From: Psammoneis japonica
Lineage: Eukaryota
DNA length: 64,000 nt
Reading direction: 5' to 3'
Assembly: GCA_008632985.1 (NCBI GenBank)
Contig: QPGO01000083.1
Coordinates: 99,075-163,074, forward strand
Made by a program: the position numbers and the translations under genes. Of this stretch, positions 38,421 to 64,000 are shown piece after piece. Numbering within the stretch: position 1 is the first letter of the stretch; every line of letters starts with the position of its first letter. The notes under the pieces were generated by a model, which worked only from the letters and a program-made list of their open reading frames with translations, ran no database searches and was not told the origin of the DNA.

Positions 38421-38559
38421 CAGGTCATCGGCAATGGTTCCTGCTTGGGGACATGGAACCAAGAGCCACTTCCCGCACGGGCACACAAGCCCATGCATCC
38501 ACAACCCCCGCAAGTGGAGTCTAGAAAACGGCCCTTCCACCCCACAACACGTGGACAGG

Positions 38560-41694: not shown

Positions 41695-41792
41695 TTCCAT
41701 CACAGGCCACGCCTCAGCCTTCCAGCCGGGCCCACCCACCCACCCAATTGCACCGCCACTGCCTGCACCAGTGCACGTGGGTGGTGCCGGAA

Positions 41793-42185: not shown

Positions 42186-42337
42186 CTGCTGGTTGCCTGA
42201 AAATCACTCGCCACCATGACGAGTGCCGCCGACGCGCCGTCGTGCAGCTCTGCGGCCGTTTCGCATTTTCCAATGCGGTGCCACCAACGCACTGTGTGAC
42301 TCTTTTATCTAAAATCACTGGCTTCAATGTTGTCACA

Positions 42338-43397: not shown

Positions 43398-44269
43398 AGA
43401 ATGCCACAACCATTTAAAGCAAGGCTTCGAAAACGAATGGCAAATCTTCTGGGGTCAAACACAGTCACACTCAATTGTGACCTCGAAACCCTTTGTTCGA
43501 CCATTGAGCCATGCACAGCTTGCAAGAATGAGATCCATGCATGATGTGTGGAAAGTTTTTGTTGAGCTGGGTTTTGCACCGGAAAATGTGCATTGTGTGT
43601 CTCTTGCTGCACCCGGTCCGTCGCGTTGAGAGGTTGTGACGCGATGTTGCACTGCGCGGCATGCAACACCGAAACGAATGAATTTGCGACGCACTCCGTC
43701 CATTTTGAGCAGCGTTGCCATGGTGTTGGAGCAGTTCAAGACTCTGTCACTCATGCAATCACTCCTCCGAACCCCAAGATTGATCCAGTGTGTCATCCCA
43801 TGCGAAACAAGGAGAGCCCGGATCAACTCTTTTGAGTCAAATTAAATGACATCTCAGTTCATCAAAAGGTTCAAGATTCCGCATCCTGACCTTTGATGGA
43901 CATGAAGAGGATGACAAAGTTGCTCTAGTTTCAACTGTTCGGCCTGCTTGCTCACAGGAAGAATGGACTGACGAAATGAAAGAAGCGCTCAAGAAACTCT
44001 TCAAGCGCAAATTAAGTCCGACTCCAATTTCAAGTTACAGCAAAGCTTCGTGGGGTCTTTCTGTCCAGGTGCAGGTGGTCCGCATCTTCACAGACAAGCC
44101 CATTTCGCCGAGCCCCTCTCCGAAACAGCATCCAAGTCATTGCGCCTTTCATGCGGGTCAGAAGTCACCCGACAAGGAATTTCACTGCCCATCCTTGTGG
44201 CCAACTCGACATTGTTCCAATGCATTCAATTGCTGTTCATCTACACTGTTTGTGTCACAACCCAAAACT

Positions 44270-44765
44270 GAGCATTGTGGAATGTGCGCAACACTTGATT
44301 TGAATGTCGGAACAATTGGTGCAAGCTCTGGGTCTCGCACTGGGATTGGACGCTGACGCACTTGACTGTTTGTTTCAGAAGGATCCATTCCGCCTGCTCA
44401 AACTCACATCCAGCAGATCCACACAACCACATGATCCAGAACAAGACACCAGTGGTGTCGATGCTCGCACGGATGCAGGACTCTGCACTTTGCTTCTTCA
44501 AGATCAAGTGGGAGGCTTGCAAGTCAATCCACTTCTAAATGGAAACGACTGGATCAGTGTTCCACCCACTGGACCCGACATGGTGGTTTGCAACCTGGGC
44601 GAAGTTGCCGAGCTTGTGAGTGGCCGGCATCTCTTGGCCACACCACTCTGTGTTGTGATGTCGCCCTGTGACAAGGCACGCATGTCCATTTCCCGTTTTT
44701 TTTTTACAATCCGACAAACGCTTTCAGTTTTTCGAAATCGGGCAAGTGGGGGACTGCGGCACTGA
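44270..44765 (+). pseudogene. Fragment of an IPNS/DIOX-like 2OG-Fe(II) oxygenase
   Basis: ALGLALGL...GVDARTDAGLCTLLLQDQVGGLQV...WISVPP...VCNLGE...SGRHLLATP..V...RMSI. HxD motif lost; TA depleted. Confidence 0.75.
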
Positions 44766-44791: not shown

Positions 44792-45208
44792 CTTCGCCGT
44801 GTTGTAAATCGAAATCACGTGGTGAAAGCACGGTGAAACTGACAAGTGGCGGAGAACGTCCAAATGCTAATTGGAAGGAAAGTAACGTTATCGAGCTTGT
44901 CCTAGACACATGTTATCCAATGTAAATAGAAACTTTCGTTGAGAAACTTGTTAAAACAAATGTTTTGGACAATTCCCAAGTTCACCACGGTGAAGCACGG
45001 GAAATCACTCGCCAAATTGCCGCGCAAATCGCTGGCAATTATCTAGCGATACTTTATAGAGCTATAATCAACGAATAGCTTCCATTCCGACATCGAACTA
45101 GCACAACTTATTGTAAGATATGTCACAGCACAACTGTCATTTAGTCAGAAGCAGTTGTGGCTTTCCACCGTGCTTTCGTCGTGCCATCAATTTTATAACA
45201 CGGTGAAG
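44792..45208. mobile_element. 417-bp MITE, Tc1/mariner-like (TA target site)
   Basis: TA|CTTCGCCGTGTTGTAAA...GAAAGCACGGTG at the left and CACCGTGCTTTC...TTTATAACACGGTGAAG|TA at the right. Confidence 0.7.
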
Positions 45209-45534
45209 TATGTACGTAAATTCATACCAGGTTCTACTGCAGTCCCCCATTTGATCGACTGAAAGCGTTTATTCTATCGGCCGTTGTGATAAAACAACTC
45301 CGTGTCCATGATGACTTGTGGGAATGCTCCAGAGACAAACGTTGGAATCATCAAGCTGGAAACGTGATGCATTCTCATTATGGAAAGAACGCATTCAAGA
45401 GCCCTGCACGATCTCATCCACGAGTGTTTTCGGAGCATCACGCAGACTTGGAAGTGTTGGAGAATGGCAGTGTTGTGAAACGAGAAGATGCAACATGAAA
45501 CACACAAGACAAGCAAGTAGCCGCTACTCTTCCC

Positions 45535-46584
45535 TTACGCTCTTTCTAGATTCGTAACTTTGGATCCCCGACCATCGGCTTGAGCTTTGGCTTGCCGCGA
45601 CATTTGCGCGTTTAACCTGCCTCTCGATCCTACGTGTGCTGCCCCGGAGGAAGATCCGCTACCATGCCTCACCGTTACCGAGTGCGTGCTCTTGCCAGGA
45701 ATTGGAACAAGCTTAAACTTGTAAACTTTTGGTCCGTCGACACTTGGCTCATACGTGTAACCGGTGCATCGGTACAAGCCTTCATAATAGTATTCAGGCT
45801 TTCCATCTTCACCTGTGGATCGTCTCAATAAGCGGATCGGATCTCGAGTCGACACAGATGAAATGAGTGACGAATTGGCTACATTCTCCTCTTGATCTGT
45901 CACATGATGCTTGCCTTTTTTACCTCCCGATCCAGTGTAAATGACCGATCCGTCGGCTTGACGATCATTGTCGTCCACATATCCGCCAGACAAGCAAACC
46001 GCATAGCACGCCTCGTCCTTGACCGAGTCAATCCCAGAAGGAATCTGGGTGTGAATCCCCAGAATCGCGGCTTCACCGCGACCTTTCAACTTGATGCCGA
46101 TTGGGACTCCCTCTATTTCCCCATGGCGACGACGAGGTGTCCATGTGTTTCGCAACTCCTTAAAGGCAACCATATCGGGTTTCTTCTGCTCAGCCTTCTC
46201 CAGTTGATTTAGTCTCTGGCGGAACTTTTGTAGTGCTTCGGCCGCACGACCCGTGCATTCAAGTGTACCGTCCTGCTGCTGTTGCTGCTGCTCCTCCAAA
46301 CGCTCTTGTTCTTCTCGGTATTTGTTAAACACTTGTTTCCACTTTTTGTACAAGGCCTTGGCTTTGGACCCAACAGTTGCGTGCGACTTTAACTTTCTAA
46401 TCACAAAAACCACCTCGCTGTCCCTCAGCCATGGATACTCCACGTCAAGCTCGTCAAGCCTCTGCAGACAGTCTTTAACAGATTCGACCACCGTCTCGTC
46501 GTTGATGGTATCTTGATTCTCAATTGCTTTTTCAAGACGTTCCTTTAGAATCTTGATGGTGGATTCTGTATTTGGTGATGACAT
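45535..46584 (-). CDS. Protein with an N-terminal TFIIS-N/Med26-like helical bundle and a C-terminal SRA/YDG domain
   Basis: HGEIEGVPIG...GIH..IPSGID...AVCLSGGYVDDND...YTGSGG...DQ...N.SL...PIRLLR...YYYEGLY...KFKL is an SRA domain. LQRLDELDV..LRDSEV..VIRKLKSH..V..KAKALYKKWK is TFIIS-N-like. Likely ATG at 46584. Confidence 0.88.
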   Translation of the reverse strand: MSSPNTESTIKILKERLEKAIENQDTINDETVVESVKDCLQRLDELDVEYPWLRDSEVVFVIRKLKSHATVGSKAKALYKKWKQVFNKYREEQERLEEQQQQQQDGTLECTGRAAEALQKFRQRLNQLEKAEQKKPDMVAFKELRNTWTPRRRHGEIEGVPIGIKLKGRGEAAILGIHTQIPSGIDSVKDEACYAVCLSGGYVDDNDRQADGSVIYTGSGGKKGKHHVTDQEENVANSSLISSVSTRDPIRLLRRSTGEDGKPEYYYEGLYRCTGYTYEPSVDGPKVYKFKLVPIPGKSTHSVTVRHGSGSSSGAAHVGSRGRLNAQMSRQAKAQADGRGSKVTNLERA

Positions 46585-47243
46585 GTTCTGTTGAAATATA
46601 TCGTATGGCAACAAAAGGACAGAACGCAGAACGCAGACCAAATAATAGAGGACGGCTCACTTTTGGCTGCTAAAGGATAATCGAATCCAAAATAAGATAG
46701 ATGGATCTACGACAGAGATGGCGTTTTACAACTCTGACAACAACACACTCTTGGCAGCAACAACAACTTGAGGCTCGAGGTGACGTGAAGAAGCAATGTT
46801 GGAGATCGTGGATCGTGGCAGATCATGGCAGATGCGAGAGAGGCAGGTCGCGCGACACCGGTTAACAGGAACAACCACCGCTGATTGGGGGGCGCGCTTC
46901 CCCCTGACGTCACGGGTTAACCGCGCTAACCGGGGGGAGTCCTCAGTGGTTCCTGCCCGTAGGAGGCCGGCGCCGGAACCACCCCCGGAACCGGTTCCCG
47001 GACCCCGGATAGGCCTGTGGTTAGTGAAGATAAGAACCTTCAGAACAGGACAAGACGTAAAATCCACTTATCGAAATGTTCTTTCTTCCCACTCGAATGT
47101 CAACATGATTCGAAACGACTCCACTTATCGAACGCCATAAGTGAGCGTTTGATTTCAAAAACCTCTTTTCTTTTGATAGTAAGGTGGGTGCACCCCAAAA
47201 GATTATCCCTCGAGGCTATCATAATGAGCAGAACAGACCCAAG

Positions 47244-49295
47244 ATGGCGTCTCAGGTCTCCATAGGAGACTTGTTGGCCCAAACCATCACACCACCCAAG
47301 GTGGATGGCACTTATGTCACTGAGTGGAATGCATACAAAAGGTGGGTGGATGAATCGCCGGCTCTGTCGGGGCCGCCTTACTTGACGCGAGACCAGGTCG
47401 ACCGGTACTTCTTGGAGGTAGTGTCGAAACGAGACGTCACGCCGAAGTCGGCCAAGCGTGTCATTTGGTCACTGCAGCATTATTCATCTTGGGAGGAGCA
47501 CAAACCTCCCAATCCAAAATTCGTTGTGAGATCAGAGGCAGTTGACGTCGCTCTGGTGGCACACAAGGAGCGATACACCCAAAATTTGCTCACTACGTTT
47601 GTATCAGCTCATGACAAGCTGCCTACGGATACTCTGTCTCGTGTTGCTGAGGATAAGATATTGAATTATATTATTCAATCTGCTGCTTGGAAGAACTTGG
47701 TAGTGTCATGGACCAGCTGCAGCCAGACCATGATACGAGGCGATCAGCTCCGACTTACACGCTATGCGGATATTCACTATGACGAAACTCACGGCCCCGG
47801 CAACCCAAACGAATCGGTCGCACGTCCAATGATAGCTCTGATTGAGCAACGGTTTACAGGCAAACGAGGTTCCCACAAAAAAAGAGTTGCAGGCATGTGG
47901 CGGCACCGCGACTGGAAGCGATGCGGAACCGGTATGAACGCCGCCGTCGCCGCCTGCAGGTTTCATAGCGATACGGAAATCCACTTCATACATCAACATG
48001 ACGGTTTCCCGGACTGGTACAAGTGTGAACTAGTGGGTTGGAAAACATTAGACACGCACCGTAAGGCATACCAACGGGTATACAGGGCAACAAAGACGTC
48101 GTGGGCAAAGTGTACTCACCTTCGCACCGCCGGCATCGATTCTAGCAACATGGGCGGGGCGACCAAGCAAAATATTGAGCAGCAGACGAAGCATGGAAAA
48201 GATTCACTTGACGTCTCATACTTGCCTGAGATCCCTCCACAAGTGCAGTTGATTGCCGCCGGGTTCTCTAAGCTGCATGGGGAGAAGGTTTACTACGTCC
48301 CTCGTACCAACATATCCTTCGGCGAACTAGTTCCCGGAAAACCAAACGTCACTGATACTGAGTTGGCAGAGATGATATGGCCAAGACTGCCTGCATGGAA
48401 ACAGCAACACAATGTTGGTCGTAAGTGGCCATGCGGTACAAACTTTTTATATGGGACCTTACCTTTTTTCGCTCGCGTCCTGTGCCAAGACGGTATCCAC
48501 TGGGTCACGGAGTATCCGCAGCACGAAGTATCCCGTCTATTGGTTCGTGTTTTTGGCGGCAGGTACATTGAGTGGGCAAGGGACAGGCTTCAAGAGTTGG
48601 CTGATATGGACACTGCAGAAGAAGACGAGATTCAAAATCTGAACATTGCTGCGCAGACAGCTTTCTCCTCGGTTCGTACCGATACACAGGTTCTGGTTGG
48701 GAAAATGGATCGACTGTCAGCAGAAGTTCAAAATTTCACTAACATTATTCTGAGGCAAAACCAGCAGCAACAACAGCAGCAACGTGAGCAGATGCAGAGC
48801 ATCAGAATGGCTGTGAGTAGTCGGAATGCGATTCAGACACGTACCGTATTGGATTCGAATCCAACTCGCTCGCGCATCGTTCAGCATCTGCCTCCGCCGC
48901 CGTCAGGTGCTACTCAACCATACTTTCCAAAAGAAATGCCAAAGACAATGACCAAATTGTTGGAGGAGCACCTGGAGTTTCAGTTGGAACAGTACAAAGG
49001 AGTGAGCAAAAAGAATTGGCAGGGTGGGGTCACTATGCAGCTCAGTCGTCGTTCATACCTGTATGGCTTGATTCTGAAACGGTCTGAGCGAGTGCGTGGT
49101 TTTTCAGACCGTGCCGCTGTACTCCAGGAATCTGCAAGGCTGATTGACGAGGAGAGAGGTACTATGTCACTCAGACAATTGTATGATACTTCCAAGGCTC
49201 AATCTAGTGATACCAAGCGCCGTAAGGTCGACCGCTCCCAAGGACCGAAGAAAAGATCGCGTCGCATCCAACCTCTCCCATCGGAAGATGCGTGA
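47244..49295 (+). CDS. Crypton-type (NDC10-like) tyrosine recombinase with GCR1_C-like C-terminal domain; intact ORF
   Basis: MIRGD, RHRD..RCG.G, KCTHLRTAG, SYLPE.P...AAGF...YYVPR, VLCQDG. C-terminal PKTM..LLEE...LEQYKG..W...LSRR..LY..I. Likely ATG at 47244. Confidence 0.75.
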   Translation: MASQVSIGDLLAQTITPPKVDGTYVTEWNAYKRWVDESPALSGPPYLTRDQVDRYFLEVVSKRDVTPKSAKRVIWSLQHYSSWEEHKPPNPKFVVRSEAVDVALVAHKERYTQNLLTTFVSAHDKLPTDTLSRVAEDKILNYIIQSAAWKNLVVSWTSCSQTMIRGDQLRLTRYADIHYDETHGPGNPNESVARPMIALIEQRFTGKRGSHKKRVAGMWRHRDWKRCGTGMNAAVAACRFHSDTEIHFIHQHDGFPDWYKCELVGWKTLDTHRKAYQRVYRATKTSWAKCTHLRTAGIDSSNMGGATKQNIEQQTKHGKDSLDVSYLPEIPPQVQLIAAGFSKLHGEKVYYVPRTNISFGELVPGKPNVTDTELAEMIWPRLPAWKQQHNVGRKWPCGTNFLYGTLPFFARVLCQDGIHWVTEYPQHEVSRLLVRVFGGRYIEWARDRLQELADMDTAEEDEIQNLNIAAQTAFSSVRTDTQVLVGKMDRLSAEVQNFTNIILRQNQQQQQQQREQMQSIRMAVSSRNAIQTRTVLDSNPTRSRIVQHLPPPPSGATQPYFPKEMPKTMTKLLEEHLEFQLEQYKGVSKKNWQGGVTMQLSRRSYLYGLILKRSERVRGFSDRAAVLQESARLIDEERGTMSLRQLYDTSKAQSSDTKRRKVDRSQGPKKRSRRIQPLPSEDA

Positions 49296-50239
49296 GGTTG
49301 AAGGAGGTCGAGTGTTTTTTGTGTTTTTGTAACTCTATAGCCCCTGCATTTTTTGTTTTCAATTTTTTCCATCCTCCCGTGTAGACCCCCAGTGAAAAAT
49401 GTACCAGAAGAAAGGCTAAAAGCCAGTCAAGCCGCTGCTTTTGTTGTCTCACAACATTTAACGTCGCGTCATCGGATCACTTAAGTGTCAGGGGTCACGT
49501 GAAACTGTCGGACATTTTTCGATCGTGACTGAAAAGTCATCAATAAATGTTCTTTCATCGTCTATAATTGAATGATGTCCTGCCCCTAAGTAGAAAGGGC
49601 CTGCGTAGGTTTTGGTACTGATGTACGCGGTAACCGGCGCTCACCGAGGCCCTAACCCCCAGGCTCCGGAGAGCCTGCAACCTTGTCAGCATGCAACCTT
49701 GTCAGCATGGCAGGGATGGAGATCATGGTGGAACCTTTGCTGATGCTGCACAAGGTGCAGGCAGGCATGGGGGTGAATGCAGAGACCTTGCAAAAGACAA
49801 TGCCAGCTTCTCGCTGTTGTGAGAGGAAACCCAAAAGCAAACAAAAGAACACCTGTTTTGGTTGCACTGCATTCTTCATAACACCCTGATGCTGGATCGG
49901 TGAAGGGAGAGGAGGGCGAAATGCTGCTGCATCTTACAGATGCTCTGCTCGCAGACTGCTGACTCCTCTTCCATCTCCATCCGATCTCTGCTCACTCCAG
50001 CGCACGCTCGCATCGCCAAAACTGTTGATGAAAAATGAGCGTCAGCACTTCTAAAATAGAAATGTCTTCGCTCTCTCTACTCTAGCTAGCTAGAGAGAGA
50101 GCAGCTACTCTAGCTACTAGCTAGAGAGTAGATAGTAGGTGTGGCGATGGCTGGCTGGACAGTGGACAGGCTGCAGCTGCGTGTGGTGGATGCAGAGGTT
50201 GGAAACCCAGCATTTTTTTCAATTATCACATTACTATAT

Positions 50240-51934
50240 TCAGTAAACGGCCCTCCCTCCAGTGGCATCAAAGCAAAAGCCAGTCGTAAAGGCGGCTTCC
50301 GGAGAGGCAATGAAAGCAACTAGACTCGCTATCTCATCAATCGTTCCACACCTCTTCATCGGAATTTTGTCAGTCATGTACTTCACCTGTGCAGCAGGCA
50401 TGTCTTCCACCATTTTCGTCTTTACTACAGCAGGTGCAAGAGCATTGCAGGTGATGCCGGTCTCGGCGTATTCTTTTCCAATCGTCTTTGTTAAACCAAT
50501 CACGGCCGCTTTGCTGGTAGAGTAGGCTAGCATCCCTGCGTTACCCTCCTTCCCGGCAATGGACGCAATGTTCACTATGCGTCCATAACCGCGATCCTTC
50601 ATGTAGGGAAGCACAGCTTTGCATCCATTGAAGATACCCTTGACGTTGACACGAAAGACGGCGTCAAAGTTGTCAGGATCAACGTCTTCAGTCTTGAGGT
50701 TTGTTGCTCCCACAATTCCTGCAGCCTGCACTAGAACATCGATACGACCACCGTTGCCTCCCGCAATACTCCTCCATGCATGAGAAACCGCTTCAGTGTC
50801 TGTTACATCGCAGACAACGGCGTCAAACTGACAAAATGAAGCAACGTGCTGCAGCTTGGAGCACGCTATGTTGAGCGTGTCTTGGTCCAAATCAACAATC
50901 GTAACACAGGAAGCTCCCTCCAGACCAAGTCGAGCGGCAATGCCGTACCCGATTCCACGAGCACCACCAGTGACAATGCACGTCATGCCCTGGAGGCGAC
51001 CAGAGAGCAATGGCTTTGCGAGCTCAGCAATTTTTTCTTGTAGTGGTTGCTGAGGTTCCACAATCGGTGTAACCAGGGTCCCAATGCCGTCAATCTCGCA
51101 CTCGACGATGTCACCAGGTACAAGCCATCTTGGAGGATTACGAAAGCACCCCACTCCTGGAGGCGTTCCGGTTGCGATAATGTCTCCAGGATATAACGTC
51201 ATGAATCTAGATATGAATGCTATGAGCGCGTCAACCTTGAAGACAAGTTCTTTTGTCGAGGAGTCTTGGAGTACCTCACCATTGACACGGCACCGAATTC
51301 CAGTATTATGAACACTTTCAAGTGTCATTTCATCTTGAGTGATAATGACTGGACCAATCGGAGCATATCCATCTACGGCTTTTCCGAGCAACCATTGACC
51401 TCCGTTCCGTTCAAGCTGCCAATCTCTTGCCGAGACATCGTGTACCACCGTGTAACCGCCAATGTGATTCACAGCTTTTTCTCGTGGTGTATTTCGAGGA
51501 ACTGTCGTTCCAATGACCACACCAAGCTCCACTTCATAGTCAAGCTTTTCGGTCGTTTCGTCTTTTGATACCGGATCACCTGGTCCAACCACGCAAGAGC
51601 CAAATTTCGAAAAGACCAGCGGTTCTTCTGGAATCGGAACATTTTGTTCAGTGCAATGATCAACATAATTCATTCCAATGCAAAGGAACTTTCCAACGAG
51701 CGACCCGTCAAGCGGAGCAAGAATACGACAATCTTGTGAACGCACGTACAACGGGCTTTCAGGAGTGCAAGATTCAATGAGAGAGTTTGCTCGAGAAATC
51801 GCTTCCGGTCCAGCAGCCAAAAATGCTCTTGCATCAGGAGAAATCGACGAAAGGTCACAGTACCCTTCAGCATTTGGGATCTGAGCGGCGAGTTTCACCT
51901 TGCCGAGGTGGGCAACGCTTGCGAGACGGACCAT
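50240..51934 (-). CDS. Fusion of an FAH-family hydrolase and a classical short-chain dehydrogenase (SDR)
   Basis: CIGMNYVDH..E...FSK...LDYEVELGVVIG...HDVSARDWQ...GK..D...PIGP...PGDIIATGTPPGVG (FAH), then VTGGARGIG...NIASIAG...YSTSK...FDATGGRAVY (SDR). Intronless; likely ATG at 51934. Confidence 0.92.
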   Translation of the reverse strand: MVRLASVAHLGKVKLAAQIPNAEGYCDLSSISPDARAFLAAGPEAISRANSLIESCTPESPLYVRSQDCRILAPLDGSLVGKFLCIGMNYVDHCTEQNVPIPEEPLVFSKFGSCVVGPGDPVSKDETTEKLDYEVELGVVIGTTVPRNTPREKAVNHIGGYTVVHDVSARDWQLERNGGQWLLGKAVDGYAPIGPVIITQDEMTLESVHNTGIRCRVNGEVLQDSSTKELVFKVDALIAFISRFMTLYPGDIIATGTPPGVGCFRNPPRWLVPGDIVECEIDGIGTLVTPIVEPQQPLQEKIAELAKPLLSGRLQGMTCIVTGGARGIGYGIAARLGLEGASCVTIVDLDQDTLNIACSKLQHVASFCQFDAVVCDVTDTEAVSHAWRSIAGGNGGRIDVLVQAAGIVGATNLKTEDVDPDNFDAVFRVNVKGIFNGCKAVLPYMKDRGYGRIVNIASIAGKEGNAGMLAYSTSKAAVIGLTKTIGKEYAETGITCNALAPAVVKTKMVEDMPAAQVKYMTDKIPMKRCGTIDEIASLVAFIASPEAAFTTGFCFDATGGRAVY

Positions 51935-52069
51935 GGTGAAGCGTATCTTCGGATTTTCGCAATCGCTGCTGTTATCGCTGTCCCACAAGATTGCCCATGT
52001 TTTTACTGCGCGTTCAGCGTGAAGCGCGCGCCAAAAAAGCTGTGACAGACGTCAATCTGGAAATCGGAT

Positions 52070-52206
52070 GATGATGTCAAGAAGTAGCAACAGCACGACC
52101 AAAACATCAAACATGGCTTCGGTTCCTATTTCTTTCGCGCAGATGATGTCAAGAAGTAACAACAGCACGACCACAAAAGCCATAAGTTTCGGTCCCTATT
52201 TCTTTC
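52070..52206 (+). repeat. ~70-bp tandem duplication in the divergent intergenic region
   Basis: gatgatgtcaagaagta.caacagcacgacca...ttcggt.cctatttcttt occurs twice. Confidence 0.8.
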
Positions 52207-52212
52207 TCTTAT

Positions 52213-52908
52213 ATGAGTGAAGCAGAAGCAAGAGGTGTTGGCAGAGCAGCATTGTCATCGAAAGGAGACGAAGGCGGTGCCACTAAGAGCGCGCATCATG
52301 ATGAATGGCAGCAGAATTCGAATCGCGGGTGGGATTACATGAGCATCTACTGGACATTTGGTTTAGCCATTGGCAAGATATTTGGATATCTACCGCTTCA
52401 ACCACTGCTGCTGCATGACAATGAGGATGCCCTACTACACTTCACTGCTACTTTGGTTGTGACCGCAGCCGCCCAACCCATCATTTTGCGTCGTTACGGT
52501 CATTTTGGTCGCGAATTCGATGTCGGAGCTTTCCTTATCTTCCCCATTTGCAATGGCATTTTTGAAACGATTCTATTTTTGGCGTCGTACGACGTCGGAA
52601 AGTGGTTGTCACAAGTTGCTTTTGGAGTAGAATCAAACCTCTGGATAGCTCGCGGTGTCGGTTTCGTCACGTTTAACGTGTACTCGGCTCTCATTCACGC
52701 ACTCTTCTGGCTTCGTCGAGCATTACCGCGACACACGTTGCCCGACGCATCTCCATTCCATCAACAAATGCTTCCTGCCTTGTTGGTTGTTAGCATCTCG
52801 TGGCTGGCCTGGCATGAATTGCAAGGCACTGTGGCGGAAGTTTGCCTGTTACACGGTCTTGTCAATGCTATGTACGTGGTAAAGATACGTCTACCTGGCC
52901 CATTTTAG
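52213..52908 (+). CDS. Multi-pass membrane protein, weak CPBP/CAAX-protease-like motifs
   Basis: 231-aa ORF with normal dinucleotide composition and several hydrophobic segments. Motifs NGIFETILF, SALIHALF and LLHGLVN. Confidence 0.6.
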   Translation: MSEAEARGVGRAALSSKGDEGGATKSAHHDEWQQNSNRGWDYMSIYWTFGLAIGKIFGYLPLQPLLLHDNEDALLHFTATLVVTAAAQPIILRRYGHFGREFDVGAFLIFPICNGIFETILFLASYDVGKWLSQVAFGVESNLWIARGVGFVTFNVYSALIHALFWLRRALPRHTLPDASPFHQQMLPALLVVSISWLAWHELQGTVAEVCLLHGLVNAMYVVKIRLPGPF

Positions 52909-53109
52909 CCATTTTCCTTTTCAATAAAGTAATTGTTACCTTTATAGCATGGTAGATAAATGTGATGCCTACAGTATCGACATTGCTCTGTTACTTTTCA
53001 CCTTGCAAACTTTGCCTCTCGCGTGCCGTGCCATTGTACACTTTTTCCGCGTTCACATTGTTTTCCATCAAACTTGACTTCGTTGACATTGCGATAGATT
53101 CTAGATCGA

Positions 53110-56100
53110 TCCGAGAGAGGTGAGTGATCAAGCCAATGAGCATGTTGCACTCTTTGTGAAGAGGGCATCACACTGGCTAGACCTCACCGCATTGACACTC
53201 GCAACAAATGCAAGTGAAGACCCATCAGTGGCAAAAAATGTCACCCAGATCTATGGTCTCTAGTGGTGGGGAATGGCTCCTGCATTCAAATCACTGTTCA
53301 CAACTGTCTGAGCCACAGATGATTTGTTGATCTCCCAAGCAATTGCACACTGAGTTGGCCACCAATTCTGCACCCAACTTTTTTCAAACAGGAGGTGAGA
53401 ACTGGGGGCCCAGCATCTGTGCAATGCCCCAAAGGGCACCAAAGATGCTTGCATTGGCCAGCAGTGCAGATGACATGGTCTGTGGCAATCTTAAAACCAG
53501 GGCAAGTGCAGTTAGAACGCTGCTCCATGACCCACTTGCAGCTTCACACTGTGCCGGTGTCAACTCAGCAGCCACAGAACCGCTTTGTCACAGTGAGCTT
53601 TGGAATCCTCCAACTGCTCTCCTGCCATTTTCTGTTCAGCCTTGCTCTTCTCATGTTTGAAACCATCCGTGGGAAGCTTTTCATGTTGGTCTTCAACTTT
53701 TGCATGCTGTTTTGCTCAGTTGTCATGCTCAAGACACCTTGTGTGTCTCTGGCGCTGATCGATGCTCTCGAGTTGTGAAGTGGCTGTCTTCATCCGGAGA
53801 ATTTCAAGCAGCATTCCGTGCACTTGTTCTACAGCTCAACTTGTGCACAGCACCAACCAAGTGCAGAATCAAGTGTGGCAAAAAATGCTGGGTGTGCCTC
53901 CTTGAATTCCAGCAAAATGCTTTCACCTTTGCTTTCTGGGCTGTTGCAAGAAATGCAAAACCCACTCCTTCTCCATCTCCAGCAGCTTGGCAAAGCCTGT
54001 TTCCAATTGTGCTGGCTTGCCAGCCAGCAGGTCTAAATCCCCCACAATGAACCTCAAGCCATTTGAGTGCTCCAGTGAGAAATGCAACAGGGCCCTGGCA
54101 AAGCATGGGTCCTGCTCACTGAGAAGAAGAATCAAAAATGTGTTGGACTCATTGAAGCAGTGTCATTTGATCTTGACCAACTCCCAGCATCCAGCTTCAA
54201 GCTCAGACAAGACTTGCTCACTTCATTTCTTGAACCACTTTGTCCTTTGCTTTCAACAAAGATGCAAAATTTTTGAGAACAAGTTCTCCTGTTTTCTTCC
54301 ACAAAAGTGGCTCAAATTTGAAAAAGAAACCATGTGCTTCCATCATCTCAAATCCTGGAACTTTTGACAAAAGACCATTTTGTGAGGGCAAAGCTTTTGC
54401 CGGCTCAAAACACAAGCCCATCTCTGACCCAAATTGCACCATGACCCAGATGCCAGGCCCAAACATCAACTCAGTGCAATGCTCCAATGCACGCCCTTGG
54501 CATGAATTGCCCACCAACTGCTTTGCCATTTCTTGTGAGACAATGAATGACAAAAAAGTTTCTTCCCTGCCACAGTCTGCATGATGCAGCAAAAGGAGGT
54601 GCTTGCAAATTTGTTGGTTGACACACCATCAACGCTGCTGTCATTCCACACAACAGATTTCTTCTGCCACAAAGATCAGCCAGTGCTTTGTGTCCTTTCA
54701 GTCCATTGCAGAAAGACTGGATGAGCCAGCAAGAATGATCACAATTTTCTTTGTGGTTGTTTTGGCCCACATGGTCACCAAATGCAGCAAGCAACACCCA
54801 CATCATGACCAGGTTTGTAATGTGAAAAGAATCATCCAAAAAAATCACCCGCCATGCAGCACAATTTGCCCACCACAGAAGATTGAGAAGTGGCAGCACT
54901 GCTTTCTTAAAAATCTTGTGGGCAGTTTTGAAAGCATGTTGGGAGCATTGTCTGTGGCCACCCTCTGTCACAGTGTTCAAATGCATTGGCAGTTCCAAGG
55001 CTCTCTGTTGGGGCAGCAATGTGGCAGCTTTGGTGGCAGCAAGATTGGTGTGCAACACTTTGTTCCTCCAAAATGCTTGGAGTTGACATCACAGGAACAA
55101 CATGGCATGCTGTTTCCATGCCAGTTCTTTGCTGTTACATTCTTCCTGAAATTGTCCTGCAGATGAAAAGTGCCAACCACATCTGGTTGTCACAGATGGT
55201 CTCAAAAGGTTGACAAAAACACAAACTCATCTTTCACATGGGATCTTCCAAGAAAGTGTGTGCTGCAAGGGATTGCAAGAGCCCACCAACTCAGATGAAG
55301 GAACTCATGGCAAAAATGAATGTGACAAATGACATGCACAGCAAAGTCTCAGATGCCCCATGTTTTGCTTTGCAAGTGGGTGAAGTTTTGATGGAGCAAA
55401 ACACTCTTGTCTCAACTGTGCCACTTCACATGATCCAGCAAGTCCACCAACTGCTCATTGTCCAATGATTTCAAAATTCAGCATTGAAGAATTTCTTCAT
55501 GGACAACCTGGACATTCTGCCTTGATGTCTGCAACTCACAATTGCCCATCTCCATGTTGCACTTTGTGATGGTGTCCTCTGATGATGGCTCAAAACCACA
55601 CTTTGCACTGGCTCCAAATGCCAACTGCTCTGCAACATTTTCATTGATGTTGTCTGCAGGAACACTTCATAAAAAGATGAAAGTTTAGAGAAGCTGAGGG
55701 AAATTGTCCAAATGTTTGAAAAAACATCTGGGAGCCACTTCTTCTTAAATCTTGACAAGGTGAATGCATTGGAGCCTTTTCTTGGAAAGGCAGGCAATGA
55801 AATCTCCCTGTCACACACATTGTGGCTTGTGGTCACAAATCAACACAATTGACAACTTGATGGACTTGGGAAGTGTTTTGTTTGGGTTGCTCTCCTTCCC
55901 TTTTTCTTCTCAGCAAAGGATGTCTTGTGCAGCAAGGAAGCTTGCATTCTCCTGAGAATGCCAAATGCATTTTGTTAGACTCCCTGCAAAAGGAGAGTGT
56001 GTGAGAGATTTTTGTGTCATTCTTGAACAGAGTTGAAAATGATTTCATTGATCATTTGCATGAGGTCACCAGTGGAGTGTCTTGGCCCATTGAGCATGCC

Positions 56101-59100
56101 GTCAACTTTTTCACATGTCATCTGTCAGACAGTGAGATTGCTTCACAAAGAGAAGGAAGGATTTCTTGTGCAACTTGGCCCCTTTTGTGGAACACCTCAG
56201 TCTTGGTGCCAATGAAGAAATGAATCCTCTCAAAAGGATGAAAAAGGACACAAGAGACTTTTGTTTGGAGTTGATTTGAGTTGCTGCCTTGCCGCTGCCT
56301 CTGTTGCCTGCAAAAAGGATTGATGGAAAATTCTGAGGTTTCCAAGGCAAAGTCATGACACTGGAAGTGTGCAGTGTGTTTCTTTTGCATGTGCAGCAAA
56401 GGAATGCAAACCATCATCTTTTGGTCAACCCCCTCCCCCCATCATGACTGCAAAGAATGTCATGAATGCTTGACTTCCCTTTTGGACCTCTCTGCAGAAC
56501 GCATGTCCCACTCAGGCATGGGGACAGAATCCTGGCAATGTGCCAGAGGTCATGATGCCACATGTTCTTTGCCAGCATGTCAGTGAGGAGCTCCACTGCA
56601 AACCTTGGTCTCTTGGCAAGTGTCCACCTTTCTTGAGAGGATCCATCATCAGTGATGACACTTTTTCCTCAAAGATCTTCAAAGTCTTTCCAAAGATCAC
56701 GTGCACCCCAGCAACTGGAAATTGGATTGCTCCACTGTGCAAATTCAATGACAATCTATCCTCTGCTGGTTCTGAGGATGTCAACCCATGAAACTTGCCC
56801 AAAGTCATTTTGTTGCTCAGGAATGGAGCATTCTGCATTCTTTGGCCCAAGTCTTCTTCTGTCAACCTGCTGTTTAAAATGAACAAATGTGTCATCATTA
56901 AAGTGCAGTTCAAGAGCAGAAAGCAGAAGGTCAATTTGGCCATGCTGGTGGAAGAGCTTCAGAATCATGCTGTCTGTGCTGCAACAAAAGGAGCATTTTG
57001 TTTGCATTGATTGGGCTGACAATGGTGGAGGAAGAGCCACCAGTTGGCGAGCTCATCACTGACAATGCAAGCAACAAGATTTAACTGCATTGTGGCAAAG
57101 GGACTGCTTTTGCTGGTGTTCTGGTCCCCACTAACTTGGAAGTTGTTTTTGTTCTGACAACAGGCCTGGAGACATTTTTGATGAAAGAGGATGTTCAAAT
57201 CCTGCCGAAAGACAAACTGGATTTGCGACATGGCCTTGGCAACATGGTGGCCTTCAAAACACACCCCTGTGGTGGGGGAGCTGTGTGTGTGTTCGTGATT
57301 GCGCACGCACATTGAGTTTCAATGTTGATGTCCACATGCATGTGCACATTCCACAAGCAAAAATTCCTGTTCCACAGCTCCCCTAAAACTCTGACCACCA
57401 AAAACCAAGGGTGCAGAAACGCACTTTTTGGAAGACAGTGCACACACCAAAACATCACGCGTTTCGACGACTCGACCATGACGACCTCCCGTTCTTCATC
57501 CCCCACACCACCTGATGTGTGCCCGCCTGCCGTTCCTGACACAGCAGTCTCTCCCATGTTGGCCGGTGCCATCAAACCCGCTGTTGTAACCCAAACACAG
57601 CAGATTTGCAATCCTGAAGTTTGGGCCCACTTTCATCGGATCCAAAATTGACCGTGGACGACATTGCCACCATTTGTCATTGAGTGCCACAATCAAGCAC
57701 AATGCAACAACAAGGCGAAACCATCCCACTCATGCTCTGACTGATGTGGATGCAAGCGGGCCTGGTGGTGGCAGAGCGAGGCGATTTTGCTTGGAACAAC
57801 AAAGGCATGGGATCAACAAGCACCAATGCACTGGTCAATGCTACTTGCATGGGCGTGGGCATGGCAGAGGAGCGTCTGTGATGGGAGGCACGGTGACAAC
57901 TTTTCTCAGGATGATTGTTCCCAAGCAGATCATCCTCTGTCTGGAGGTGATTGAGGCGCACCCAGAGCCCAGTGGAGCCAATTGGAGCCAACAACAGGTG
58001 TCAAGATGAACTGCAGCAACATGTGAAGGAGGATGCAGCCAATGGAACACGGGCAGAGAAGGTGCCGGCATGCAAAGTGGCAGCACAGCTGTCGACATGG
58101 CACTGGTTTTGAAGGTCTAACAGGGGTTTTCTGTGTTTGCCAAAAGCACGTTGCTGCCTGCCTCCATTTTAGCAACCTACAAAAACAGCATGTTGTGCAT
58201 CACATGTGGAACTCAAATGGCGAGAGTGGCCTCTCATGGAATTGCACATGATGACCCAGTCCTGGAAAACAGAGCAGTGTCCAAGCCACATGCACCACTT
58301 GAAACCTTGCCAAGTTGCCTGCAAACAAATGCCAGTTTGCTGACCTCTCCAACTTGAAACTAAAAACCGTGAAAGCATGCTTGCCATCCAATTGTTGTCA
58401 GGTTTCTAATTTACACAGAGCTGCACAATGTGTCTGTACATTCTAAAGATTAGACTGCACTCAAGAGCTGACCAAGAGGCACTGTTTATGTCCATTGATG
58501 TGTCGTCCATCAGCAGGCCATGGTTGCGTGGGTTTCCTGGTCCGCCATCATCCATTGTGCTCCTTCTAAAGCAAAAACAATGACAGCATCAACAGCACCT
58601 GTGGCAGCAAGGGTGGGATTAACAGTGTCGAGCATGCCAGGGGGTCGAAATGCAGGTGCGGCGTTGGAATTCGTGACAGTGTCTGTGGGAGGCGGTGGGG
58701 CGAGAATGAAAGAAGTGTGAGTTGTTGGCACTTCATTGTGGACAACAACAGTGTCAACAGCACCTGCAGCAGCAAGGGCAGGAGCAACAGCATTGGGCAT
58801 GCTGGGGGCCCAAAATGCAGGTGTGGCTTTGGAATTCGTGACAGCATCTGTGGGAGGCGGTGGAGCATGCAAACAACAGTGTGAGTTTGCAGCATCTTGT
58901 TTTGCATGTGTCACACCCACAAGAACTGGAATGATGACATCACCTGTTGTGTCAGTGTTGTTGGCAACGGCATCAACAGGATCAGCATCCTGGGAAGGCA
59001 ATGGGGAAGAACCATGAGGCATCATCATGGTCAAGTCGTCAAAACGTGTGTTTTTTGTGCGGAGAAAAGAGCTGCCAAAAGTGCACTTCCGCACCCTCGG

Positions 59101-60220
59101 TTTTTGGTGGTCAGAGTTTTAGTGGAGAATGTGGCTCAGGATTTTTCCTGCTGCTGTTAGCATTTGTGTACAAATTCATGAACAAATGTAAGAACATTTA
59201 CATGAAAATGTGATGAATGAGATGTAAACTGCCACGCAACCATGACATCACCACATTCTCCCCTGCCACAGGGGTGTTCAAAACAACAGGGAGGATGCCA
59301 CGTGCCACCCAAAAGAATTGATCCCTCAAAGAACCTGCAGTGACTTGAGCATTTGAGAGGGTGACTCATGCATGGCCATCCCACCACCCATTCCGATGGA
59401 TTCTCCTCCACACAGCAGGTTCCTCATGGCAGGTTCCTGTCAGCACAACACAGACTTCAACATGGGCTGTTCTCCATGAACCTTTTGTGCCACCAATTTC
59501 ATTCTGTGTTGGACCTGAGTGTTTAAAACATGATGCAGTCTTGGACAGTTGGTGGCACTGGGTGGAAAACCCCTGCATTTGGCACAATGCATGGCCAACA
59601 CTGGGTTTCATTCTTGCCACCAACGATTTGAGCCCGTCTTGAGAAACTGACACAGTGGCCAACTTGCACTGGCTCAGAGTCAAGAACTCTGTGATGTGTG
59701 CCATGTTCACTTGGCTCTCATTCAAACTCTCTTTTGGCTTTGTTGAGGATGACCACGACACACGTTGCCCCCCCCCCCCCCTCCGTTCCATCAGAGCAAA
59801 TGACCCCAAAACCTGCTGCCTGCTGCTGTTGTCTGGGCTGCGGGTGCAGGGGTCACTGCAGATGAGCTGGGCCTTGATGGATTGATGCACAAGTGAAATA
59901 AAAACCAGATTGGAGCACTCAGGCTCTTGCTTGTGTCCTTGTGTGATCCACTCTTCTTGCTGAGTTTGTTCAATCCTTTGGCTTCCAGGTGGATGGCAGT
60001 CGCAGCTGCAGTGCGGACTCGCCCAATGCAGCAGTCTGTCCACTCCATTCCCTCTTGAGTGTCATTCTCTCATTTGATCCACAGCACTTTGTTTCTTGTT
60101 CATTGGACAATCACATCAAGCTTGTGGAGCTTTCAGCACAAGTTCTCTGTGTCTTGCTGGACTCTGGATTCCCCGGCAGTCCTGAGGCGTCAAGAACCCT
60201 GGCGACGAACCCATTGTAGA
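53110..60220. other. TpA- and CpG-depleted degenerate repeat domain
   Basis: Manual count finds about 43 TA dinucleotides in about 7.1 kb. Edges against the normal genes on both sides are sharp. Confidence 0.85.
57262..59276. mobile_element. Non-autonomous Mutator-like element, 2.0 kb, ~250-bp imperfect TIRs, 9-bp TSD
   Basis: TTCAAAACA|CACCCCTGTGG ... CCACAGGGGTG|TTCAAAACA. The arms share ctaaaactctgaccaccaaaaacc.agggtgc.gaa. Confidence 0.85.
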
Positions 60221-60641
60221 ATTTCAGGTTGCTGGCAAGAACACTGCATCACATTGATGCAAATTGAAGCACGCAGAACCATTTATTTCGAGTAGCTTCG
60301 ATCTAGGTGCGTGCACGAATCGAAACCAAATCGAACGACGAGCACCTTCGATCGGCATGTTCTCGCCTGTGGCCCGCGCCGCGGAGTAGAAACGAATCGT
60401 GTTACAGTGCAGTAGGTGCGTAGCGGTACATACGTCCGACCACACACGACTGACTCCCCGAGCACAAGGAATGCCGCACGCTCACGAACTCGCACCGTGT
60501 GCCAGAAAGCAAGGGGAGTTGAGAGTGGTATCTTGAATTTCGGCAACTGTTCCTTTGCACCATAATTTTCTGTGGAAGCGATTTCGCAGCTTGTGTTTAC
60601 GACGAAACCAGTACGGTAGTGGGAGGAAGACGATTCTTCAA

Positions 60642-63623
60642 ATGGTTCCAAAAGCGTTGCTCCTCCTGTTGTGCGTGAGCCCGTTGTTTTCTAAGGTTCA
60701 TGGCGAAAGCGTAAGAGACGGCAACGGAGGTAACTGCGTCAACGTTACTTCCTGCCGACCTCGATGCGTCACTTTTCGACTTGACCGCACCAAAACCGAC
60801 TGTGATAAAGCCGAGGGCGTCTTCGCGGAGCAATCTGAGCCCAATCCTTGGGATATCCATGAGTTCCGCTCGTTGAATTGTGAATCTGCTGGCACTTGTT
60901 TTAACAGCAAGTGTGGTCAAGACTTGCTGGGTAATGTGACGCTGCGCATCAGCGAGGATGGAGACCTTGGGTCTCCGTTCGTCACGAATGTCGAGTTGAA
61001 GGACACTCAAGAAAGATTCACGTTTTGTTCGGTATACCCCTGTCCAAATGAAGAGTGTGCATTGCCAGAGCAAATGGTATGTTGCCTTGCGATACTTATA
61101 TTGATTTTCTCCTTATCACAAAAAAAAAACTGAAACCGTCCAATTTGCATACTACCTTAGGGATCGGAGTTACGACTCGAAATTCACGAAGGAAGTAGCG
61201 GGCAGCCAAGTGACGAATATCTGCTTGCCTTGGTAGGTTTCGAACCTCTTTTATGTACTTCTCTGGAATGCATCCGAGAAAAGCTTTTCTCACACACATT
61301 GGAAACTCGCATATAGGAGCTCTCCCTAACGGCGTCTTTTGCCGGATCTGCGTTTCACGAAGCCGTAGACAACAGGTATGGACCGTTGTATCTGGAATGG
61401 ATGGATGATCCCACTGGATGTCGGCATGGCGCATTATCGGATTTTGCGCCAATTGCACCGCCTGCTGAGCCCTTGGTTGCTACGAATTTGACTGAGGTTG
61501 AAGCCGGCTTGTACTGCGAAGGTGATACGTACGATCTATCGCCACTCCCACAAGCTATGACACCGAGCGCAGCACCGAGTCTTGCACCCACGACGACTGC
61601 AACATGGACTTCCGAAGAACTCGACCAAATTGAGGCCCTACAAGCCTTTTATAACTCGACCCACATGGGGCATCACCAATCCAAGCGCTTTCATAACTGG
61701 TTCACGGTTGACAATTACTGTGATTTCACAGGTATCGTCTGCGATGCAAATGGTTTTGTAACGAGCATTGATCTTACTAACAAGAGGCTTTCAGGAATCC
61801 TTCCGACATCGTCCTGGGAGCTTTTGAGCAAACTCCAAACTCTCAAGCTTGTCGGAAACCTGATTGAAGGCAGCATCCCTTCCCAGCTCGCACAGTTGAG
61901 TCATCTTACTCATTTGGAATTGGCAGTAAACAACCTCTCCGGCCCAATTCCCGACTCTCTCTCGTCCCTGAACCAGATTCGCCGCCTCATGCTGCAGTAC
62001 AACAAGCTTAACGGTACCATCCCAGAGTCTGTCTGCGATTTGACGAAGCTCCTTGCATTTGACATTTCGGGAAACAAAGCCATGCATGGCGAGATTCCTT
62101 CATGCCTTGGTACACTTCCTTTGGAAGTTCTCCGAGTCGAGGACGTTGGTCTCGTGGGTGAAGTCCCGCCGGCATTATGTGCTGTGCGCAACATCAATGG
62201 ACTCGAACCGAATCGCTATGGGTGCGAGGGTATTGCTTGTCCAGCTGGATACTACGAACCTATTTTGGGGAGAAAGAACAATGCCAATAGCCAGTGCCTC
62301 ACATGTGTCGCGCCCTCCAATGTAATTGGGTCGACGAAAAATGCATGCTTTTGGAAGGCAACGATGTCGTAACACAAGCTCCGTCGAGCAGCCCGGCACC
62401 AAGCGGTGTTCCATCATTCAGTGCTTCTCCGACCATGAGCTTTTCACCAAGCGCTGTTCCATCTGCGAGTCCTTTACCAACCATCAGCATCATGCCTACT
62501 GTGGGTTCTTCAAACACGCCTTCTGGAGTTGAGACTCTTTCTTCAGCGCCAAGCGCTAGTAAGGAAGGTTATTCAGCGAATCCATCTGCGGCTCCCAGCC
62601 TGCATCCGTCTTCACCTCCCACGTCAGTCCCAACAATAATTTCGACAGCCCCCTTGACACCCGCTCCATCCCAAGCAGACACTCCAAGCCTGACCAAAGC
62701 CAATTCCACAAAACTTCATGAGGTATCTGTAGACTTGATACTCCTCTTTGCGAACATTACAACGAAGCTGACTGACTCAGCCGACAAGGCAGCTTTTAAC
62801 CATGCTACCAAGACCTTTTTGAACCATCAGCTGCCGGTGGAGGTACACGTTATTCACGATGTTCTTATTGTTTCGCAGTTTCTGCACGAGCCAGAGAGCG
62901 AAAGTGATGGAATTGTGCACTTTACTTTCCGACACCTATCTCAAGCGGCTCTACACATCAAGATCAGAGTCCAGGGAGAAACGAGCGATACTGACAACGC
63001 GTTCAAGATGGCGATTGAGCAGTCCCTGAAAGAACAGTATGGCTCATACATACACAAGCTTTCCAAAGACATTGATTCCTTCGCAACGCCGGTTGGTAGC
63101 CAAGGTGGTGGAAAGGACAACATTAATTGGGCACTGCTTGTTGTAGCTGTAGTCTTGTCTGTCGTGGCAGTTGCAACGCTACTGGTGGTTCGCCAACTTC
63201 ACGGCAGAGACCGCTTTTCAGCAGAGGGGCAAAACGCAGGAGCCCACTGGTCGAAAAAGAAAAATGTACGTCTTGAATCACCACAACGAAGGCATACAAT
63301 GCCGCTTGCTCAGCAGTAATATCCTCACAAGCAGTTTTCATTGAACTTTTCTTTCACAGAAGCGACATTTGTTTAGTTTTGGTGGAAGAGGAAAAGGTCG
63401 TCCACCGGTTGAAGGCGGCTCCTTGTCTGACGAGAGTAGCGCGGGTTGGAGATCAGGCGAAGGGTCAGAGGAAGGTGAATTTGTCAATCCGGTCCGTGAC
63501 AGTGAAAGCATTGAGTCAGCCCAAGAGTGGACCATTGACCCGCTGGACCAAATGACAGAGTACGATGGTGACAACATGTCAAGAACCCCCAGTACCACGG
63601 AACAATCCATTGCTGTTGTATGA
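60642..63623 (+). CDS. LRR receptor-like membrane protein (signal peptide, LRRs, PS-rich stalk, TM, acidic tail); introns 61077-61160, 61233-61316 and 63266-63359; 1-nt frameshift near 62340
   Basis: MVPKALLLLLCVSPLFS signal; LxxNxLxGxIP plant-type LRRs; WALLVVAVVLSVVAVATLLVV TM. All three GT-AG introns restore frame. Removing one A from GAAAAATGC gives STKCMLLEG. Confidence 0.85.
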
Positions 63624-64000
63624 GCAAGCGGCGTCGTGGTTTTCCTAATTCTTCTCGGCAAACATTACAATGAAGAAGACATTGATTCTCTTTTTCCTCC
63701 CAAGAAATGACGCATAAATGCACACATGACTCTTGTTCGAGTCCCACCTTAGAAGACGTAGTAGATCCCCATAAGAACACTTTGCCGCTGTTTCTATAAC
63801 ATGTGAGACTGCAAAAGGTTCAGCAACGACCATCGCATTACGAGCACCAAGTATTCTGCAAAAGTTCCACGACGCACCCTTTTCTTTCCAACAACGGTGG
63901 CGAGCAACGAGCTGCGACAAAAGGCAGGCATGGCATGCACACAAGAGAAACTGGTGATCTTCCAACTTCCAATTGCCATCGCGCTGCTGAGACAGGCGGC

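Follow-up and report, generated by a model that had tools for sequence, protein, structure and literature searches.

Context-dependent survival of TpA dinucleotides in TpA-depleted blocks of a Psammoneis japonica contig

In fungi, repeat-induced point mutation, or RIP, acts as a dinucleotide-specific transition hypermutation that ruins transposons and leaves a compositional footprint. It makes TpA from CpA and needs duplication. The present study concerns a footprint that runs in the opposite direction, with TpA destroyed, in a window of 64,000 nucleotides from the eukaryote Psammoneis japonica (GenBank assembly GCA_008632985.1, contig QPGO01000083.1, positions 99,075 to 163,074 of the forward strand). 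Within this window, to which all coordinates below refer, attention is centered on a TpA-depleted block at 53110-60220, where the TpA sites that survive are strongly biased in their flanking bases. Fungal RIP, as C-to-T change at CpA or another CpN of duplicated sequence leading to an excess of TpA, is ruled out for this DNA, in which TpA is depleted rather than enriched. A further difference from RIP is that no second copy of 53.3-57.3 kb was seen among the contigs of one DNA run.

The closest described system is that of Bigelowiella natans, for which TpA hypermutation was reported very recently. In mutation-accumulation lines of this species, two integrated viral regions show de novo A-to-G/T-to-C changes that are nearly confined to TpA, TpA-poor genes are enriched in transposon domains, and an ADAT2-like protein is a candidate adenine deaminase (10.64898/2026.01.13.699255). 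The likeness extends to the direction of change (TpA to TpG or CpA), to the presence of transposon and reverse-transcriptase domains among the targets, and to the targeting of single-copy DNA as well, and the depleted blocks of the P. japonica window fall within the window cut-offs of the preprint (10.64898/2026.01.13.699255). Unlike in the B. natans description, depletion here takes up about 42 of 64 kb and is mostly joined by CpG decay. Furthermore, the main text of the preprint contains nothing on bases beyond the dinucleotide (10.64898/2026.01.13.699255), whereas a flank effect is found here. Full-text literature searches likewise returned no flank preference for TpA hypermutation, the B. 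natans preprint, considered in its main text, being the only report found. The underlying process has been described before (10.64898/2026.01.13.699255), while the flank footprint appears to be new.

A dinucleotide odds-ratio scan gave an observed-to-expected ratio (O/E) for TpA below 0.25 in 42 of 64 1-kb windows, and these fall into three runs, bounded at 400-nt resolution at 4101-16800, 19501-44700, and 53001-60400. Within the runs, the O/E of TpA is 0.00-0.25 and that of CpA and TpG is mostly 1.4-2.8, or about doubled, in comparison to an ordinary TpA O/E of 0.4-0.8 in the DNA separating them. For the block at 53110-60220, the respective values are 0.04-0.19 for TpA and 1.6-2.0 for CpA and TpG, and CpG is depleted too. 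Matches to mobile DNA in the depleted blocks include MULE, weak RVT_1, and weak Plavaka matches, a retroelement, and an element with terminal inverted repeats (TIRs). CpG has an O/E of 0.00-0.68 across most of the TpA-depleted DNA (6001-36000 and 53110-60220), but the GC-rich retroelement region at 36-43 kb keeps its CpG (O/E 0.77-1.13) despite the loss of TpA. The two depletions are therefore separable, and two processes feed the excess of TG and CA.

Surviving TpA sites can be divided by their flanks into YTAR (Y, pyrimidine; R, purine), which reads TAY on neither strand, sites reading TAY on one strand, and RTAY, which reads TAY on both strands; all splits below are given in that order. An original prediction, drawn from the letters of the block alone, had put its 43 TA sites at about 25:16:2, and these figures proved exact. 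The YTAR survivors consist of eight TTAA, eight CTAA, seven TTAG, and two CTAG, and both RTAY sites are GTAC. This split differs from the 1:2:1 of unbiased flanks (P=1.1e-6), from the 13.4:21.2:8.4 that a first-order Markov chain of the block itself would give (P=3.2e-4), from the 9.6:23.0:10.4 given by the flanks of its own TG/CA 4-mers, which represent context-free back-mutation (P=5e-8), and from the 102:379:207 of normal DNA (P=1.0e-12). Here and below, normal DNA denotes a baseline of 688 TA sites in 17.3 kb of non-depleted, mostly genic sequence, all from the same window. The YTAR bias of surviving TpA in 53110-60220 is far beyond chance.

The prediction had also asked whether unmutated DNA shares the YTAR excess. 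Within the window, normal DNA shows the opposite bias, as YTAR makes up only 102 of its 688 sites (15%) and RTAY makes up 207 (30%). The largest non-depleted comparator, 45000-53000 (TA O/E 0.4-0.7), is split 47:164:93, and the others lie at 1-3000, 16800-19500, and 60400-64000. Among them, the AT-rich and probably non-coding stretch at 1-3000 is biased in the same direction as the rest of normal DNA (34:94:50).

The YTAR bias is replicated across the other depleted DNA. The block at 6001-16000 has 28 TA sites split 15:13:0, and that at 20001-44500, in which CpG is depleted at 20-36 kb but not at 36-43 kb, has 148 sites split 68:67:13, made up of 39:45:6 in 20001-36000, 19:17:4 in 36001-42500, and 10:5:3 in 42501-44500. 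Pooled with the reported block excluded, these four segments give 83:80:13 (P=2.8e-22 against normal DNA), and all depleted DNA together gives 108:96:15, which departs both from normal DNA (P=4e-28) and from its own Markov expectation of 65.3:108.8:44.9 (P=2e-11). A dose effect is seen at 3001-6000, where depletion is partial (TA O/E 0.22-0.46) and the split is intermediate at 29:28:14. Additionally, the bias is present both inside a TIR element nested in the reported block (10:5:1) and in the rest of that block (15:11:1).

Survival varies widely among the individual NTAN contexts. Per kb and relative to normal DNA, it is greatest for TTAA (0.74), followed by CTAA/TTAG (0.40), CTAG (0.19), and GTAA/TTAC (0.16); it falls to 0.11 for CTAC/GTAG, 0.08 for ATAA/TTAT, and 0.06 for both ATAG/CTAT and GTAC, and is lowest for ATAC/GTAT (0.03) and ATAT (0, with counts of 0 vs 52). 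All ten classes were fitted by a Poisson model with four parameters, in which the two A:T pairs of TpA are lost independently and the rate of each is set by one flank. By the base 3' of the A, the fitted per-strand rates are 0.19 for A, 0.76 for G, 1.52 for C, and 2.28 for T, a ranking of T>C>G>>A at about 12:8:4:1 whose order was stable over three baselines, including genic-only and non-coding-only ones. The negative log-likelihood of this additive per-strand model is 24.0, in comparison to 128.5 for a context-free model and 32.3 for a duplex model in which the flanks multiply, fitted to the same data.

The TAY preference put forward in the original prediction is borne out in that loss is about four-fold faster with flanks of the TAY type than with TAR, but it follows a gradient, with TAA as a refuge and TAG as an intermediate. 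Its caveat that the preference is not absolute also stands, given the TTAG/TTGG and TTAA/TTGA or TCAA differences between pairs of paralogs. Beyond the +1 base, an A at +2 (a T at -3 on the other strand) is protective in its own right, being found at 49% of survivor sites vs 26% of normal ones. Survival is 0.43 for TAAA vs 0.15-0.26 for TAAC, TAAG, and TAAT (P=2e-4), 0.32 for TAGA vs 0.07-0.11 for the other TAGN (P=4e-6), and 0.18 for TACA vs 0.03-0.10 for the other TACN, and there is little signal at positions beyond -4 and +3. TpA removal is context-dependent and replicated across the depleted blocks; TAY is a fair shorthand for the context that is lost fast, and the main refuge is TAA.

Evidence that TA was converted to TG or CA comes from the conserved columns of the retroelement only, and not from 53110-60220. 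The GC-rich coding region of this retroelement lies at 36346-41077 (+) in three frames and is flanked by direct repeats resembling long terminal repeats, at 35903-36096 (+) and 41908-42102 (+), which are 93% identical. It has 1414 homologs at E<=0.001, one of which (P0031) has an RVT_1 match. When the best 150 of these homologs were placed on the window by tblastn, 15 columns had at least 50% Tyr, and the retroelement now has His in five of them, Cys in five, Tyr in three, and other residues in two. Because Tyr is encoded by TAY, Cys by TGY, and His by CAY, the Tyr losses show TA to TG or CA change in the ancestral coding sequence. The CpG route is reflected in 54 conserved Arg columns of this alignment, which have 40 Arg, five Cys, and four His. 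Open reading frames (ORFs) of the depleted blocks have a Tyr content of 0-0.7%, with Cys and His at 3-6% each; an example is the MULE transposase ORF at 20634-21812 (-), with no Tyr (0%) and 5.1% each of Cys and His, for which a search gave no match at E<=1e-5.

The retroelement also bears on whether the present TA sites are old. In about ten cases, the codon gives the conserved residue as it stands but would lose it as a CA or TG form; the TA sites in question belong to the Tyr codons at 38898, 38988, and 39464, the Arg codon AGA at 38966, the Asn codon at 40513, and five Leu codons (the T of TTA). The present TA sites are mostly true survivors, together with some new ones. In either case, whether TA sites survive or arise anew, the near-absence of RTAY requires context-dependent removal.

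As classes, YTAR and RTAY are self-complementary, and survivors are therefore blind to whether a Y at +1 or an R at -2 is the deciding flank. The products of one-sided sites separate the two models, since YTAY would become YTGY under +1 and YCAY under -2. Between normal and depleted DNA, one-sided TA sites fall by 19.6 per kb, the products favored under +1 (YTGY+RCAR) rise by 23.7 per kb, and those of the mirror class (RTGR+YCAY) rise by 11.0 per kb, with YCGY+RCGR, which contributes equally to both product classes, falling by 12.3 per kb. Among individual contexts, and with normal DNA taken as the ancestral baseline, the +1 reading fits TTAC (TTGC +8.85 vs TCAC +1.76 per kb), CTAT (CTGT +4.74 vs CCAT +0.92), TTAT (TTGT +4.46 vs TCAT +2.56), and TTAG (TTGG +2.87 vs TCAG +0.30). 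The products of RTAY (RTGY+RCAY) rise by 20.1 per kb. Those of YTAR (YTGR+YCAR) rise by 6.4 per kb, about as much as YCGR falls (6.3 per kb), and thus almost no net product stems from YTAR. In addition, RTAY edited on both strands would become CpG, so that an excess of RCGY is expected, and in the CpG-retaining block at 36001-42500 RCGY exceeds YCGR by 133:89, vs 199:211 in normal DNA (P=0.008).

Counted by 1-kb window, favored products exceed disfavored ones in 38 of 42 depleted windows vs 15 of the 22 remaining ones. A self-comparison of the window gave 13 usable paralog pairs lying wholly in depleted blocks, with 11 places where one copy has TA and the other TG or CA; at two of these the copies disagree in flank class, and they were set aside. 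Seven of the nine retained events are directional, and six of these fit +1 (TTAT/TTGT, TTAG/TTGG twice, CTAC/CTGC, GTAA/GCAG, and ATAA/ACAA), with one, GTAA/GTGA, fitting -2. Under the fitted rates, the log-likelihood of the nine events is -4.71 for +1 vs -13.15 for -2, a difference of 8.4. Ten mutated conserved Tyr codons gave -7.61 for +1 vs -7.50 for -2, a difference of -0.1. The in-frame ratio of T|TGY to T|CAY is 27:26 for depleted-block ORFs and, for ORFs of normal DNA, 12:30 (Fisher P=0.036). Taken from sequence comparison, the product counts and the nine paralog events weakly favor +1 over -2, and the +1 reading is moderately probable among strand models.

The blocks are best explained, with reasonable though not high confidence, as DNA hypermutated from A:T to G:C at TpA, in which the surviving TA sites are mostly true survivors of context-dependent removal. 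Transposons, the retroelement, and sequence of unknown origin would have been hypermutated at TpA, with TA becoming TG or CA. Each A:T pair of the TpA would be struck independently, at a rate set mainly by one neighboring base, such that the base 3' of the edited A ranks T > C > G >> A, with an A at +2 adding protection. RTAY sites, fast on both strands, would then vanish, most one-sided sites would be lost, and YTAR sites, TTAA in particular, would persist. The strand-independent additive kinetics and the one-sided flank effect would suit an enzyme that reads one strand, and this enzyme, for instance a polynucleotide adenine deaminase, may read a few bases surrounding one that is flipped or unpaired. 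We infer, as plausible parts of this explanation, that the deciding flank is +1 and not -2, that the attacked base is A and not T, and that the enzyme belongs to this class. A more tentative proposal, which we consider possible but doubtful, is that of a natural genome defense by adenine editing of DNA, a "reverse RIP", acting on transposons and single-copy inserts and on each strand independently, with the footprint T-A-[T>C>G>>A] and protection by an A at +2.

Several observations weigh against this best explanation. All survival and product figures lean, in place of ancestral sequences, on the 17.3-kb, mostly genic baseline from the same window. Two contexts depart from the product pattern, as CTAC is even (CTGC +5.69 vs CCAC +5.72 per kb) and GTAT runs against +1 (GTGT +3.93 vs GCAT +5.48). 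The window-level asymmetry is modest, with a favored/disfavored ratio of 1.36 in the 42 depleted windows vs 1.18 in the other 22 (Mann-Whitney P=0.044; pooled chi-square P=0.015), and it does not correlate significantly with TA O/E (Spearman P=0.64). Similarly, the TTGB/TCAB contrast is 1.71 in depleted DNA vs 1.48 in normal DNA, and normal regions span 0.71-2.66. Paralog events are few in number and are polarized on the assumption that TA is ancestral. At mutated Tyr columns preceded by a pyrimidine, Cys:His is 4:3 at a conservation of at least 50% and 5:3 at one of at least 40%; however, all of these codons had C as that pyrimidine, for which both models predict about 2:1, and the Cys/His test is therefore non-discriminating. 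Lastly, three retroelement TA sites (39045, 38134, and 37403) look new, the homolog consensus fitting CA or TG better. One of these belongs to the TAG at 39045-39047 that ends a 715-amino-acid retroelement ORF where 55 of 57 homologs have Gln, which looks like a CAG-to-TAG nonsense change, by which a TpA would have been created and not have survived.

The same footprint could stem from another chemistry, in which the thymine of R-T-A is modified, for instance oxidized such that it mispairs with G, in place of adenine deamination. A TAY site that goes from A to G reads, on the opposite strand, as an RTA site that goes from T to C, and survivors therefore do not distinguish whether the A or the T paired with it is attacked; as the base-pair change and the duplex context are the same, the survival, rate, and product data fit both equally. 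A 2OG-Fe(II) oxygenase ORF does lie at 44304-44762, but as a general PF03171 match only, with no link to the signature seen, and the B. natans preprint reports an ADAT2-like candidate and, in its main text, proposes no thymine-directed mutator (10.64898/2026.01.13.699255). Thymine attack is thus considered rather unlikely. Alternatively, the deciding flank could be on the other side, with a purine two bases 5' (R-T-A) favoring the edited A. Such a -2 model fits the survivors as well as +1 does and the conserved Tyr columns about equally (-7.50 vs -7.61), and His codons outnumber Cys codons after a purine in depleted-block ORFs (64 vs 34), which neither model predicts. It is nonetheless quite unlikely in view of the 8.4 log units by which paralog events favor +1, the larger gain of TGY-type products (23.7 vs 11.0 per kb for the mirror class), and the rise of T|TGY relative to T|CAY in depleted-block ORFs (P=0.036). 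A third possibility dispenses with a strand-specific motif and lets the structure or opening of the 4-bp step set one rate for both strands. RTAY would open easily, and YTAR and A-tracts would be stiff; the protection by A at +2 or T at -3 recalls A-tracts, and the product asymmetry is weak. However, such a duplex property is very unlikely, since over three baselines the duplex model is worse than the additive one (32.3 vs 24.0, 36.0 vs 25.1, and 35.9 vs 33.1), under-predicting TTAA (29.8 vs 48 observed) and over-predicting GTAA/TTAC (52.6 vs 40).

Two further explanations do without survivors or without mutation. If erasure were context-free, the present TA sites would be mostly new, arising through C-to-T change at CAR, as when a methylated non-CG cytosine is deaminated. 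This route gives NTAR and YTAN but never RTAY, the CAR-only prediction of about 1942:2719:0 from TG/CA 4-mer counts is not far from 108:96:15, the three retroelement TA sites noted above, including CAG to TAG at 39045, look newly made, and most blocks are, judging by CpG decay, probably methylated. Yet about ten retroelement TA sites encode conserved residues that CA or TG forms would not, the motif CTAAAAC is common to both TIR arms, YTAR-derived products gain almost nothing on balance after removal of the CG-derived share, the partly depleted 3001-6000 is intermediate, and context-free back-mutation predicts 9.6:23:10.4 for the reported block; the probability of this origin is accordingly put as low as that of the duplex property. 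That the bias arose by chance or was inherited from the ancestral make-up of the inserts is extremely unlikely, given P-values of 3e-4 to 4e-28 under four nulls, the same bias in each of the five depleted blocks, unrelated in origin, and the opposite bias of normal DNA, including AT-rich non-coding 1-3000 (34:94:50).

Among known enzymes, bacterial TadA has U-A-C-G as its substrate. Like TadA, ADAT2-ADAT3, and the TadA-derived editors, the process seen here would act on an A after T or U, with C at +1 among the fast contexts. Unlike in the U-A-C-G of TadA, a T at +1 is here no slower than a C, and G at +2 is not favored, TACG surviving no worse than TACC or TACT (0.10 for TACG vs 0.03 for TACC). 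The match of the footprint to U-A-C-G is thus partial. By analogy, a TadA-like enzyme is a plausible agent, and no deaminase domain was found in the scanned ORFs of the window. The TadA-8e A48E editor is described in a review as preferring 'YAC' (PMC13109818). In ascomycete A-to-I mRNA editing, as reported, U is preferred at -1 and UAG and UAA are often edited (PMC11156358), and a preference for U at -1 is also given for ADAR in animals (10.64898/2026.01.13.699255, Discussion). However, ADAR and ascomycete editing act on RNA, and the UAG and UAA contexts edited in ascomycetes are those that survive best here.

The reported block is composite. Its nested TIR element (57378-59127) has 51-nt terminal inverted repeats that are 90% complementary, with CTAAAAC identical in both arms, and carries 16 of the block's 43 TA sites. 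Within the element lies a tandem duplication (58577-58866; two copies, period 165, 81% identity), whose copies differ by, among others, CG/TG, CG/CA, TG/CA, and TA/CA. Many contigs of run X1 match the element at 80% likeness or more, with a summed depth of 2758-7617 vs 58-81 in neighboring bins, though summed contig depth is not a copy number. For 52814-57291, the longest piece among those listed is a single X1 contig with 19 differing letters. Contigs of run X2 cover almost none of 53.3-59.3 kb, which is not evidence on expression. As to origin, no Pfam family was found in the 11 scanned of the block's 15 ORFs of at least 110 amino acids, two block ORFs had no viral-contig relative, the block gave no usable Atlas hit, and a 24-nt core of the TIR had 0 exact matches in metagenome contigs.

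Elsewhere in the depleted DNA, a tandem duplication of about 730 nt with 97% identity is found at 6083-7553, with six scored substitutions, one of them TTAT/TTGT, and an inverted copy (75% identical) at 12601-13191. At 22001-29000, strand asymmetry is strong, with GC skew down to -0.47, and at 23-24 kb the O/E of TG is 2.77 vs 1.47 for CA. The ORFs of the window carry SAD/SRA, LRR, FG-GAP, and NDC10_II domains. The SAD/SRA-domain gene (Pfam PF02182) at 45535-46656 (-) adjoins the CpG- and TpA-depleted DNA, and the 2OG-Fe(II) oxygenase ORF (+; PF03171, E=2e-12) sits on the margin of the second depleted run, with no link to the mutation process seen. An ORF of 716 amino acids with an NDC10_II-like domain, at 47145-49295 (+), has a normal TpA content and is matched by many X1 contigs; protein searches with this multi-copy ORF gave no paralog above 58% identity. 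Some contigs of run X2 omit five CT..AC-ended stretches, 72-95 nt long, within it (48029-49057), which would correspond to GT..AG introns of an antisense transcript crossing the uninterrupted ORF. In addition, an intron-less fusion of 603 amino acids at 50240-52051 (-) joins a fumarylacetoacetate-hydrolase domain to a short-chain dehydrogenase, and its nearest Atlas cluster is bacterial (score 0.98). An Atlas search with a window protein returned bacterial SDR and FAA-hydrolase clusters only, a result that does not place the organism.

As TpA hypermutation came to be reported only lately and, in the main text of that report, at the dinucleotide level only (10.64898/2026.01.13.699255), a reproducible extended context adds to its description. 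The context effect explains which TA sites persist as refuges in old targets, and the ratio of YTAR to RTAY, beside TpA depletion itself, could serve in scans for such regions. Together, the extended context and the independent kinetics of the strands narrow the mechanism to a one-strand reader, and the ratio of about 12:8:4:1 for T, C, G, and A at the deciding flank provides a quantitative fingerprint for testing candidates such as an ADAT2/3 homologue. If the proposed adenine editing of DNA is true, TpA hypermutation would have its first extended motif in T-A-[T>C>G>>A], specific enough to single out the deaminase and to distinguish it from ADAR-type and fungal TAD-type editing.

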